A DNA stretch of 64,000 nucleotides from Escherichia coli (GTDB lineage: Bacteria; Pseudomonadota; Gammaproteobacteria; Enterobacterales; Enterobacteriaceae). Position 1 is the stretch's first letter; every line of letters starts with the position of its first letter. The position numbers and the translations under genes were made by a program. Shown piece by piece: positions 11,510 to 56,234 of this stretch. The notes beneath the pieces are model-generated. The model did not search any database, had not been told where the DNA came from, and saw nothing but the letters and a program-made list of their open reading frames with translations. The DNA lies in assembly GCF_030013595.1 (NCBI RefSeq), contig NZ_CP122768.1, one strand, 5' to 3'.

Positions 11510-11775
11510 AAGGAGTCCCTCCGCACTGTCTGAAACAGTACAGAAATGTCTTCAGGCGTGGCGAAGCCTTACCTGAAGGTAATAAAGCTGAGCAGGGACG
11601 TTAAAACGTCACGGCCTTACGCATCCGGTAACGCCGTGAAAAGACGGGCTTACCGGAAAAGTTTTAATCTCCGTCGAGGGAGAGGCGTGGGATCAGGTTC
11701 CATATAACCTCCGGTAAGTGAAAAAAGCGCCGCAAATAATAAGGAGAATCCAATAATATTCGTAGCATCTATGGC
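11510..11775 (-). promoter_or_regulatory. mgtA 5' leader (Mg2+/proline-sensing leader RNA) containing mgtL
   Basis: Long untranslated leader between PhoP-type promoter and mgtA start, with proline-rich leader ORF. Confidence 0.7.
11650..11703 (-). CDS. mgtL: mgtA leader peptide (17 aa, [17 protein letters not shown])
   Basis: ATG at 11703 and TAA at 11650 on minus strand. Confidence 0.85.
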
Positions 11776-28725: not shown

Positions 28726-28762
28726 AGTTTCCCCCGTTGTAAAGCGTGCGCCAGATAAGACA

Positions 28763-28855
28763 CAACTGCGTCGCATCAGGCATCTCGCACAACCGCCGGA
28801 TGCGGCGTGAATGCCTTATCCGGCGGCCCACAAGTCGGCATCAGGCATTGATGCC
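28763..28855. repeat. REP/BIME repeats between ytfR and ytfQ
   Basis: gccggatgcggcgtgaatgccttatccggc and flanking gcatcaggc units. Confidence 0.6.
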
Positions 28856-38385: not shown

Positions 38386-38559
38386 TTTTCATTTATCAGC
38401 AGTCTGAATTTTAACCCTCTGGCGGCTTTACAGTACCTTACGCTATACTAGCCACTGAAAATGCCGGTTCACTTTCTTCGAATCGGCTTTCAATGTGTAT
38501 TTCACACAAATTAATCAACTTCCCCTTCCGAGGATCTGGCCTGAAAGGTCGGATAAGAT

Positions 38560-42530: not shown

Positions 42531-42719
42531 TTCTCCACCTCGTCTCTGTGAGCGGTGTTAACTTATTGTTTTACTTATACCCTATCGTTAATGAATGCGC
42601 CAACTGTGATAGTGTCATCATTTTCAAAGCGTAAAATTGTGGCATTCTTCACTGTTCTATAAGTAAGACGTTTATTCTCCCTTTTCTTTCGTATTCCCGA
42701 TGATAAAAGGATGTCCCTG

Positions 42720-50556: not shown

Positions 50557-51195
50557 ATGCCCGGGCGCTTTGAACTAAAACCAACCCTGGAGAAAGTCTG
50601 GCACGCGCCGGACAATTTTCGCTTCATGGACCCGCTGCCGCCGATGCATCGTCGGGGGATCATTATTGCCGCCATTGTATTGGTAGTCGGATTTCTGCTT
50701 CCATCTGATGATACGCCCAACGCGCCGGTGGTGACGCGTGAAGCGCAGTTAGATATTCAGTCGCAATCACAACCACCGACAGAAGAACAGCTGCGGGCGC
50801 AATTAGTCACGCCACAAAATGATCCTGATCAGGTGGCTCCGGTCGCTCCAGAACCAATACAGGAAGGCCAGCCAGAAGAGCAGCCGCAACCCCCCCAAAC
50901 GCAACCATTCCAGCCAGATAGCGGAATTGATAATCAATGGCGCTCTTACCGTGTCGAACCCGGTAAAACGATGGCACAGCTGTTCCGCGACCACGGGCTG
51001 CCCGCTACCGATGTCTATGCAATGGCGCAGGTAGAAGGCGCGGGTAAGCCGCTGAGTAATTTGCAAAACGGGCAGATGGTGAAAATCCGCCAGAACGCCA
51101 GCGGCGTGGTGACGGGCTTAACCATTGATACGGGGAATAATCAACAGGTCCTGTTTACCCGCCAGCCGGATGGCAGTTTTATTCGTGCGCGGTAG
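50557..51195 (+). CDS. ytfB: OapA/LysM-domain cell-division-associated protein (212 aa)
   Basis: ORF track 50521..51195 trimmed to MPGRFELKP; Pro/Gln-rich linker. Confidence 0.85.
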
Positions 51196-51295
51196 ATGAA
51201 GGGTCAACCAGAAGCCAGCTAAGGAGCGTCTCTTTGATGACCTTACGTCTGGCTTCCAGTGCCTGGGGGGAAACCATACTGATGTGTTGACATCC

Positions 51296-51317
51296 TCCAC
51301 GCCCTGAAGGACGTGGA
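51296..51317. repeat. Subterminal hairpin of the IS element (tnpB-distal end; shared core GCCCTGAAGGACG)
   Basis: tccac-gccctgaagga-cgtgga; 13-nt core identical to the hairpin at 52998-53017. Confidence 0.6.
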
Positions 51318-51329
51318 TCCCTGCTACGT

Positions 51330-52538
51330 TCAGGCTGTCGCCTGAATCATTTCGGTGGGTTCCTGCTTCAACGAGCGGCCTGACTGCACCATCTCTCCAC
51401 AGGCAAGAACGGCGTGCCCCGCCGCTAAAATGTTACGAGCGCCATTTACATCGGCGTTCGCTGTATATCCACATACCTGGCATCTGAATTTAATTTGTGA
51501 CAGGCGATTTTCTTTCGCTGTATGACCACAGCACGCGCAACGCTGGCTTGTGTACGCTGGCGGAACAGCAAGCACCTGACCGCCACGCCAGAGCTGCTTG
51601 TACTCAAGCTGGCGGCGCATTTCATACCAGCCCTGATCCAGTATCGAACGGTTTAAACCTGATTTTGCCCGGACATTGCGCCGCGGCTGGCTGACCGTAC
51701 CCGCTGCTGACTTTGACATGTTGCTGACCTTCAAATCCTCAATGACTATCATTGCGTGGTTTTTGCTGACGGTCGTTGTGACTTTGTGAAGGTAGTCCCT
51801 GCGGATATTTGCGATACGGGAATGCAGTCGCTGTATTTTGCGTTTCTGCTTCTGCCAGTTATTGCTGAATTTGACCTTGCGGCTTAACTGTCGCTGAAGT
51901 CTCGCCAGCTTCTTCTGTTTTTTCTGAAAACTGTTTACAGGCTCAAAGACTGTGCCATCTGACAGCGTGGCGAGTTTAACCACGCCAGCATCCAGCCCGA
52001 CCATTGATGCTGAAGGATGAACCGGAGTTGATACTTCACTTTCTGTCTGAATACTGATGTACCACTTACCGCAGGACTGGCTGACCGTGACATTTTTCAC
52101 AACACCCGTGACCTGACGGCTATTCCGGTAGCGCATCCAGCCCAGTTTCGGCAGAAAAATACGGCTGTTTTCCTGATAGAGCTTAACGCCCTACGGGTAG
52201 CGGAATGCATCATTCTGTCCCCGCTTTTTGAATCGGGGAAAAGCAGCCCGCTTCTGGAAGAAGTTTTTGTAAGCCCGCTCAAGGTCTTTCAGTGACTGTT
52301 GCAATGGCTGTGACGGGGCATCTTTAAGCCATTGCGTTTCAGTGGCATTTTTCCACTCAACCAGCCAGGAAGCCATTTTCCCGTAAGGGATGTATTTATT
52401 ACCGGCCTCATGATTCTCATTCTGAAGCGCCAGAGCACGATTGAAAACGAAACGACATGCGCCTGCGAAGCGCCTCATTTCACGCTCCTGTTGACCACCG
52501 GGTCTTAACTGGAATTTAAATGCCTGTCGTCGTTTCAC
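51330..52538 (-). pseudogene. tnpB: IS605-family TnpB (RuvC-like RNA-guided nuclease family), interrupted by one in-frame TAG
   Basis: ORFs 52191..52538 and 51330..52136 share one frame; my hand translation across the gap gives ...DAFRYP-stop-GVKLYQENSRIFLPKLGWMRYR...; C-terminal Zn ribbon CACCGH...CQVCG; RuvC-like D/E/D residues. Confidence 0.8.
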
Positions 52539-52608
52539 AGGTCAAATGATACTTTGGTCTGTGAAAAAAGAAACCTATATCCGGCGTGGAAGGTATTGTG
52601 TTTTCCTG

Positions 52609-53020
52609 ATGCATGTTCACCTGGTCTTTGTCCCAAATACCGACGCCAGATTTTTGACCATGACGCGACAGAAAAACTACGCACTTACTTTTCAAATGTA
52701 TGTGCTGATTTTGAAGCTGAACTGGTTGAAATGGATGGCGAACCAGATCACGTCCATTTGTTAATTAAATATCCTCCCAAACTGGCGATATCCAGTCTGG
52801 TAAACAGCCTCAAAGGCGTATCGGGTAGGTTACTGCGACGAGATCGACCAGATATTGCAGTCAGGTATTACTACAAAGGCGTTTTGTGGAGTCCTGGCTA
52901 TTTTGCCAGTAGCTGTGGAGGTGCGCCAATATCCGCCATCCGTCAATCCATTGAACAACAGCAAACACCTGGTCAGGTGGAAAACCGCGCCGTATATCCC
53001 CGCCCTGAAGGACGGGGTTT
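52609..53020 (+). pseudogene. tnpA: IS200-type Y1 (HuH) transposase TnpA, -1 frameshifted near N-terminus
   Basis: MHVHLVFVP in one frame, then KYRRQIF...DHVHLLI... (HuH motif) in another; switch within gtcccaaatac homopolymer context; no in-frame stop until 53159, so C-terminus undefined. Confidence 0.7.
52998..53017. repeat. Subterminal hairpin of the IS element (tnpA-distal end)
   Basis: cccc-gccctgaagga-cgggg; same loop and core as 51296-51317. Confidence 0.6.
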
Positions 53021-53033
53021 TACGGCACACCGG

Positions 53034-53357
53034 ATAAACCAGGCCAAGCGTATGCTGGTTGATCAAATAATATCCCCCAAGCGCAGCAATATTAATATAC
53101 ACCTGCAATGGGTCGATATCTGGCTTAAAAATATTGTGTTTCTTCCCTTCATCCAATAAGGATTCCATTAACTGCAAGTGCGCATGATTAATTTCTAAGA
53201 GACGCTGTGATTTTACATAATGCACACCTTTACTTTGGTTTTCACTATGCACAATTTTTAAAAACCAAGGATTAGCAATATAATATATCCTAGGTAAAAT
53301 CGATGATTTTTTCAATGGCTTTTTGTGGCTGGTTAACCTGCTGATTAACAAACGCAC
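53034..53357 (-). pseudogene. ytfA: Truncated ORF, N-terminal about 108 codons, ytfA-like; C-terminus replaced by IS sequence
   Basis: 175-codon ORF 52830..53357 whose last third is antisense to tnpA; identity with K-12 ytfA is from positional memory only. Confidence 0.45.
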
Positions 53358-55512: not shown

Positions 55513-55926
<414 letters not shown>

Positions 55927-56234
55927 TTATTCAGCCTCCTGTCTGGGTCAGCCGAATCCCGGGGAGGCAAGGAACGTGTTAAAGGTCGGCTGAAAAATGA
56001 CGCATTATAGTACTGACATACCCTGCTAAACTCAAGGCCAGCCGACAAATAAATCTCATCTTTCACCAAATCGTACTAACACGCTGATTTGAAGTTCATC
56101 ACACTTCATCATGGTGTTTTTTTGAACAACTGCATCAGAAATGGTCACCATCAACTTCTTTATCATTGATTAAAATTAAATCAGAAGATCATCACAGAGG
56201 AGAGCACACAAAGTCAGCCGTCGAGGAGGTATCT

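Follow-up and report, generated by a model that had tools for sequence, protein, structure and literature searches.

The two matching hairpins that lie near the ends of an insertion element in an E. coli chromosome are very probably IP_L and IP_R, the subterminal hairpins recognized by TnpA, of a copy of IS609. The stretch of DNA that was analyzed, 64,000 nt in length and referred to here as the window, has the gene order fklB, ytfB, element, yjfZ, rplI around this locus. Judged by its sequence, the element is an IS609 copy of the IS200/IS605 family: a near-identity search that covered 5,426 complete E. coli genomes gave 97-98% identity over the whole element to PGAP-named IS609 family copies and to the K-12 insQ locus, and the IS609 name is based on this identity. 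PGAP labels the homologous copies 'IS200/IS605-like element IS609 family transposase' (tnpA) and 'RNA-guided endonuclease InsQ/TnpB'. IS609 is a known, named and routinely annotated insertion sequence from a family whose mechanism has been well characterized; the finding of the hairpins is correct, but ordinary.

The active, or top, strand of the element is the window minus strand, which is the sense strand of tnpB. On this strand the order of parts is TTAT, 16 nt, the LE hairpin, tnpA (antisense), tnpB, GGAT, the RE hairpin and finally AGGATGTCAA, after which the element ends. The features are given below by their positions in the window.

51287-53033, minus strand: complete IS609 copy of 1747 bp (reference copies 1748 bp), delimited by empty-site alignment and five independent insertion sites
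53034-53037, minus strand: TTAT, target and left cleavage site (C_L), in flanking DNA outside the element; presumed TAM for TnpB
53018-53033, minus strand: LE linker CCGGTGTGCCGTAAAA, the 16 nt between the left cleavage point and the foot of the hairpin, defined by the empty site and the five insertion sites
53018-53021, minus strand: AAAA, putative left guide (G_L), which covaries with the target in relatives
52998-53017, minus strand: LE subterminal hairpin (IP_L), CCCCGTCC-TTCA-GGGCGGGG, from search, folding and covariation
52987-53028, minus strand: LE outer helix (arms 53024-53028 and 52987-52991), which encloses the hairpin and an internal loop holding G_L
52546-53033, plus strand: tnpA pseudogene, with a frameshifting 1-nt deletion near 52633 and TAC changed to TCC at the codon for the catalytic Tyr (52947-52949)
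51330-52538, minus strand: tnpB/insQ pseudogene, Gln116 changed from CAG to TAG at 52191-52193, from comparison with the yfaY copy
51287-51456, minus strand: conserved structured region of the tnpB 3' end and RE, presumed omega-RNA scaffold, the last stem of which is the RE hairpin
51317-51320, minus strand: GGAT, putative right guide tetranucleotide (G_R), directly 5' of the RE hairpin foot
51296-51317, minus strand: RE subterminal hairpin (IP_R), T-CCACGTCC-TTCA-GGGCGTGG-A, from search, folding, covariation in alignment A3 (below) and alignment with Rfam models
51287-51296, minus strand: RE tail AGGATGTCAA, 10 nt from the hairpin foot to the end, with the cleavage site C_R, TCAA, at 51287-51290
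51271-51286, minus strand: flank directly 3' of RE, CACATCAGTATGGTTT, candidate omega-RNA guide, a role suggested by the TnpB model

Features of TnpA and of the ends agree with the family assignment. The Y1 HUH transposase (TnpA, Pfam PF01797) of an intact copy matches Y1_Tnp with 144 bits over positions 1-121 of 121, the window copy matches with 120 bits, and NF033573 is covered by intact TnpA at positions 2-126 of 126. The termini, CCGGTG... and ...GTCAA, are not inverted repeats, and each end has a subterminal imperfect palindrome, the two sharing strand and orientation. Insertion occurs 3' of a specific tetranucleotide, TTAT, without target-site duplication, as is characteristic of IS200/IS605 elements, and comparative evidence points to guide tetranucleotides 5' of the hairpin foot, in line with the IS608 rule. 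The IS609 copy of K-12 (ydcO-insQ-ydcL) has the same gene order, ends, hairpins and TTAT target as the window copy, which differs from it in its location in ytfA and in its lesions, a nonsense codon in tnpB and a frameshift plus a Tyr-to-Ser change in tnpA.

The hairpin sequences, tccacGCCCTGAAGGACGtgga at 51296-51317 and ccccGCCCTGAAGGACGggg at 52998-53017, were both found on the plus strand in the same orientation. Allowing up to one mismatch and searching both strands of the 64 kb, exactly two copies of their 13-nt core, GCCCTGAAGGACG, were recovered (51301-51313 and 53002-53014), with 0.04 expected by chance and two or more matches in 0 of 100 shuffles; the stretch identical between the two hairpins is 14 nt long (CGCCCTGAAGGACG). 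When folded as single-stranded DNA, both sites form hairpins of 8-9 bp on either strand (z-scores relative to shuffles, -2.8 to -4.3), and the difference in their outer stems is compensated, with A-T in CCACG/CGTGG versus C-G in CCCCG/CGGGG. The 8-bp core stem of the RE hairpin spans 51297-51316; its third pair, counted outward from the loop, is a T.G wobble. Matching hairpins with an identical core near both ends of the element had been proposed in the sequence-only reading, along with folding of both ends and a search for the core at unrelated sites; both ends do fold, and in all fetched loci the core was found at IS609 ends only.

The exact ends of the element were established by comparison with uninterrupted alleles. 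The element splits ytfA (TetR/AcrR) into two fragments, and a query consisting of the flanks alone found these to be contiguous in 3,282 complete E. coli genomes, including K-12 MG1655. Alignment of the empty site (K-12 and O169 alleles) with the window places the junction, marked here by a caret, at ...CTGATGTG^ATAAACC... on the plus strand, with a one-base G ambiguity, and at ...GGTTTAT^CACATCAG... on the minus strand; comparison of the empty GGTTTAT^CACATC with the occupied site reveals no target duplication. The ambiguity was resolved because four more independent insertion sites were compared, namely ydcO/ydcL in K-12, yeaQ/yeaR, yfaV/yfaY and yajI/tsx. Read on the minus strand, all five sites have TTAT^CCGGTG...GATGTCAA^ followed by unrelated flank, and in every E. 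coli copy GGATGTCAA^ precedes the right-end junction. The element ends are at window positions 51287 and 53033, and the RE tail is nearly invariant in 18 relatives, with the flanks diverging directly after TCAA. TTAT is found 5' of LE at five of five E. coli insertion sites and in a plasmid fragment, is retained in the empty site, and is a frequent LE cleavage site (PMC9956272).

These data refine the earlier view of the hairpins as markers of the element boundaries. Their subterminal position stands, but the extent of 51296-53017 that had been given to the element does not, as the element extends 10 nt beyond the hairpin at RE and 16 nt beyond it at LE; the empty-site alleles and the five insertion sites agree on these ends, and nothing maps them elsewhere. 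Likewise, the arrangement is indeed that of TnpA-type LE and RE hairpins, with IS608-like distances and flanking motifs, but by IS convention left and right are swapped relative to the window: the hairpin on the window left is RE and that on the window right is LE.

The ytfA pieces on either side of the element occupy 51118-51286 and 53034-53357 (minus strand) in the window, and the uninterrupted K-12 allele occupies 480-881 in the fetched locus L003. This K-12 allele is itself annotated as a partial pseudogene (missing N-terminus) and lacks the insertion sequence, so that the insertion struck a gene that was already decaying.

The geometry of the ends can be compared in detail with that of IS608 from Helicobacter pylori, in which TTAC, 19 nt upstream of IP_L, is cleaved on its 3' side, and the right-hand cleavage takes place at TCAA, 10 nt downstream of IP_R; the sites are recognized via tetranucleotide guides 5' of each hairpin foot, such that an altered G_L causes a predictable change of target (PMC3201880). 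A survey of TnpB-containing elements in six species, including E. coli, described TTAT and TCAA cleavage motifs together with LE and RE hairpins (PMC9956272). The comparison with IS608 ends that had been suggested turned out favorably, as both elements have top-strand subterminal imperfect palindromes, C_R TCAA 10 nt 3' of IP_R, guides 5' of the hairpin feet, and a target 5' of LE that is not duplicated. The guide sequences of IS608 are GAAT (G_R) and AAAG (G_L); IS609 differs in having AAAA as G_L and TTAT in place of TTAC as target, in its LE spacing (16 nt, versus 19 nt in IS608), in the nature of the hairpin irregularity (a T.G wobble, versus a conserved extrahelical T in IS608) and in the presence of an LE outer helix. 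GGAT would act as right guide by the positional rule of IS608 (PMC3201880), and this G_R reads GAAT in most relatives versus GGAT in the window, in both cases together with TCAA, as in IS608. A further difference from IS608 is that tnpA of IS609 is divergent from tnpB, as a result of which the LE hairpin falls inside the 3' coding tail of tnpA. In IS605 and IS606 of H. pylori the genes are likewise divergent, with the bottom-strand tnpA adjoining LE and the top-strand tnpB adjoining RE; IS609 shares this organization, with tnpA by LE and tnpB by RE, while hosts and sequences differ.

Conservation of the hairpins and guides was traced among more distant relatives. Scanning the intact TnpB against 100,044 species genomes yielded 52 loci with 28-94% identity, many of which have this hairpin at two places, upstream of tnpA as well as downstream of tnpB. 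An alignment, A3, was built from 21 LE and RE hairpin sequences of about ten genera, drawn from E. coli, Citrobacter, Erwinia, Serratia, Morganella, Klebsiella, Janthinobacterium, Arsenophonus, a symbiont of the insect Plautia stali, a Zetaproteobacteria MAG and a Coriobacteriaceae MAG. Pairing of the 8-bp stem amounts to 97% in A3 (slid controls, 42-59%) and five of its eight pairs show double-sided changes, which was reached in 0 of 500 shuffles; because a script had picked sequences with seven or more stem pairs, the pairing figure is an overestimate, whereas the compensatory changes are free of this bias. Compensated stems include CCCCT...AGGGG in Janthinobacterium, CCATG...CATGG in Morganella and CCCCTGTC...GACATGGG in the Coriobacteriaceae MAG. 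Furthermore, T.G pairs, which are frequent on the minus strand, correspond to A/C mismatches on the plus strand, and the minus strand is thus favored as the folding strand.

The left guide was found to vary together with the target, AAAA being accompanied by TTAT in at least ten elements and AAAG by TTAC in two related elements (L018 and L019), on which the latter combination rests. This guide-target covariation is the one that the IS608 rule would predict. Two distant relatives do not fit the rule in its simple form: Janthinobacterium L044 (2134-2188) has the LE guide CAAG and an upstream flank of TTGA/TTGAC, and Conchiformibius L032 (2387-2441) has the LE guide AAAG and an upstream flank that lacks TTAC. 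Different spacing or degradation may account for these cases.

The tnpA frame, on the opposite strand, contains the LE hairpin in the part that follows the complete catalytic domain. This frame has no stop inside the element in any E. coli copy of IS609 and terminates at variable distances in the flank; the passage of the tnpA frame through the right-hand hairpin, which had been pointed out from the window, was also seen in every other IS609 copy examined. Because the tnpA stop lies in the flank, the C-terminal tail differs at each insertion site, and this location of the stop probably explains why PGAP flags IS609 tnpA genes as 'missing C-terminus', their Y1 domain being complete. The frame (window 52546-53159, plus strand; 1807-2295 in loci L004-L007) runs via the LE hairpin and the TTAT target into the flank, which contributes from 4 to more than 40 extra residues. 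Three relatives with a recognizable frame also have a tnpA without a stop inside the element, the automatic check for tnpA stops being only partly informative in relatives, since many tnpA genes are degraded and other frames were picked.

The outer helix that encloses the LE hairpin reads GTGCC/GGCGC in the window, with a T.G wobble, and GCGCC/GGCGC in most relatives. Its five pairs, which played no part in sequence selection, are 96.6% paired, and three of them show double-sided changes, one event each; in the window fold the helix reaches six pairs, since an A-to-C change at 52992 adds a G-C pair. Pairing has been kept by paired substitutions in Morganella and in the Zetaproteobacteria MAG, and in Morganella, the one case examined, these are synonymous for tnpA. 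The LE arrangement might couple tnpA expression or the length of the TnpA tail to the insertion site, or the outer helix might present or sequester the guide AAAA as a regulatory switch, although we regard such functions as unlikely.

The RE hairpin is of interest in a second context, that of the TnpB omega-RNA, whose published architecture combines a scaffold from the tnpB 3' end and RE with a guide from the flank. The guide role of the flank reportedly goes back to the TnpB model of Karvelis (2021) and Meers (2023). The omega-RNA (reRNA) of ISDra2 TnpB arises from the tnpB 3' end and RE, has a G+C-rich hairpin a few nucleotides before the boundary and a guide from the flank, and its TAM is the transposon target. 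RNAalifold analysis of the last 180 nt of 14 relatives gave a multi-helix fold that ends in the RE hairpin, with compensatory changes in 12 of 48 pairs. An Rfam scan at gathering thresholds found no match in the element, while a permissive scan of the minus strand (51274-51457) gave RAGATH-18 (29.5 bits), HgcC (23.9) and sot0042 (17.1), all below gathering, and in the sub-threshold matches to HgcC and sot0042 the model's terminal stem falls on the RE hairpin. The presumed omega-RNA of the element would resemble that of ISDra2 and the Rfam families HgcC, sot0042 and RAGATH-18 in coming from a structured region at the tnpB 3' end and RE with a G+C-rich hairpin near the boundary, although the Rfam scores are sub-gathering and the window copy has a tnpB pseudogene. 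The RE hairpin is also the 3'-terminal stem of this conserved structured region, the likely omega-RNA. If used as a guide, the flank CACATCAGTATGGTTT would target the TTAT-adjacent sequence of the empty ytfA allele, which it matches. Elsewhere in the window, gathering-level Rfam matches comprise a Magnesium-II riboswitch, naRNA4, STnc450, ES239 sRNA and an RpsF leader, ordinary E. coli features located at 11603-11718, 28749-28825, 38441-38498, 42597-42719 and 55906-55990.

An alternative model is that the hairpin acts solely at the RNA level, as the stem at the 3' end of the TnpB omega-RNA, its copy at the other end being incidental and not a TnpA site. The alignment of the RE hairpin with the terminal stems of HgcC and sot0042, the fact that it closes the conserved fold that follows tnpB, and the better tolerance of T.G wobbles in RNA are compatible with this model. 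However, the LE copy is separated by 1.7 kb from any omega-RNA context and is antisense to tnpA, yet it is conserved with compensatory changes of its own, the LE guide tetranucleotide covaries with the target, and both ends have IS608 geometry, which makes an exclusive RNA role very unlikely. It is also highly improbable that the hairpins are intrinsic transcription terminators of tnpA (plus strand) and tnpB (minus strand), a function suggested by the TTTTAC that follows the plus-strand LE hairpin CCCCGCCCTGAAGGACGGGG: a scan for terminators reports neither hairpin, the plus-strand stem has a C/A mismatch, only four T residues follow the LE hairpin, the RE hairpin is followed by AGGATGTCAA and has no T run, and the TTTT is complementary to the guide AAAA, whose change to AAAG goes along with a change of target, a pattern that a terminator role leaves unexplained. 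Finally, the idea of a repeat due to chance, or of a generic REP-type genomic repeat with no link to the ends of the element, has nothing in its favor beyond the small size of the match (13-14 nt) and was rejected as having next to no probability, in view of the 0.04 core copies expected per window, the restriction of the core to IS609 ends in the fetched loci and its fixed distances from independently set boundaries.

While the hairpins and the ends of the window copy are preserved, its genes are not. The window copy differs from the uninterrupted yfaY copy at 42 positions, among them the tnpB and tnpA lesions listed above. The intact TnpB homolog contains the Pfam domains OrfB_IS605, Cas12f1-like_TNB and HTH_OrfB_IS605 and matches NCBIfam guided_TnpB, and intact tnpA copies encode a complete Y1_Tnp domain (aa 18-139); the catalytic tyrosine lost in the window belongs to the ...IRQYIEQQ... 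motif. Because tnpA and tnpB are both inactivated, the window copy cannot move by itself, and the most similar genome (99.9% identical) has a single place that matches the element. The copy is most likely an immobile fossil with intact ends.

Miniature derivatives that retain LE and RE are essentially absent from the 5,426 E. coli genomes, save for one 726-bp copy and one plasmid element of ~268 bp, with one further plasmid in PLSDB, and a MITE family of IS609 was ruled out on this basis. The 726-bp derivative (L062:601-1326, E. coli 2017-02-2CC), which lies between tam and lsrG, has kept both ends and tnpA and has lost most of tnpB. The ~268-bp miniature (L061:601-868, plasmid pZH177-3, NZ_JBMIPJ040000004.1; second plasmid CP088867.1, 21384-21657; these being the only two such plasmids found) combines the hairpin-bearing LE with some 115 nt from the RE/omega-RNA region, carries no genes, and is inserted after TTTAT, between a hok toxin gene and a truncated DUF5431 gene. 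A solo LE fragment of 41 nt (TTAT, linker and hairpin), unannotated, is present on plasmid NZ_CP171884.1 (L008:2501-2541), breaks off just after the hairpin and presumably represents a truncated remnant.

The hairpins, the exact ends, the target, the covariation of the stem and of guide with target, and the conserved structure at RE are established here, whereas TnpA binding, single-strand cleavage chemistry and omega-RNA function are ascribed to IS609 from its family and would operate as follows. The hairpins would form on the single-stranded top strand (window minus strand), and both would be bound by a dimer of the Y1 HUH transposase, TnpA. This protein is predicted to make two cuts, one after the flanking TTAT, at 16 nt on the 5' side of the LE hairpin, and one after TCAA, at 10 nt on the 3' side of the RE hairpin. 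The cleavage sites would be placed by base interactions with the tetranucleotide just 5' of each foot, AAAA at LE and GGAT at RE. The element would then leave as a single-stranded circle and enter 3' of another TTAT without target duplication. In its putative second role, the RE hairpin would be the final stem in the scaffold of the TnpB omega-RNA, an RNA that the tnpB 3' end and RE would together encode. Biochemical or transposition data on IS609, which is named in genome surveys only, were not found in the searchable literature, and the literature searched held nothing specific on the activity of intact InsQ or on the InsQ TAM.

There is nothing here that would surprise a specialist, and the main use of these results is correct annotation of the exact ends (51287-53033), strand, TTAT target and inactive state of the element and of the split in ytfA. 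The expected TAM (TTAT) and the omega-RNA boundary may be of practical use for tests of E. coli InsQ/TnpB. For the family, the analysis offers comparative in-silico confirmation that the hairpin and guide rules of IS608 hold for the enterobacterial IS609 clade.
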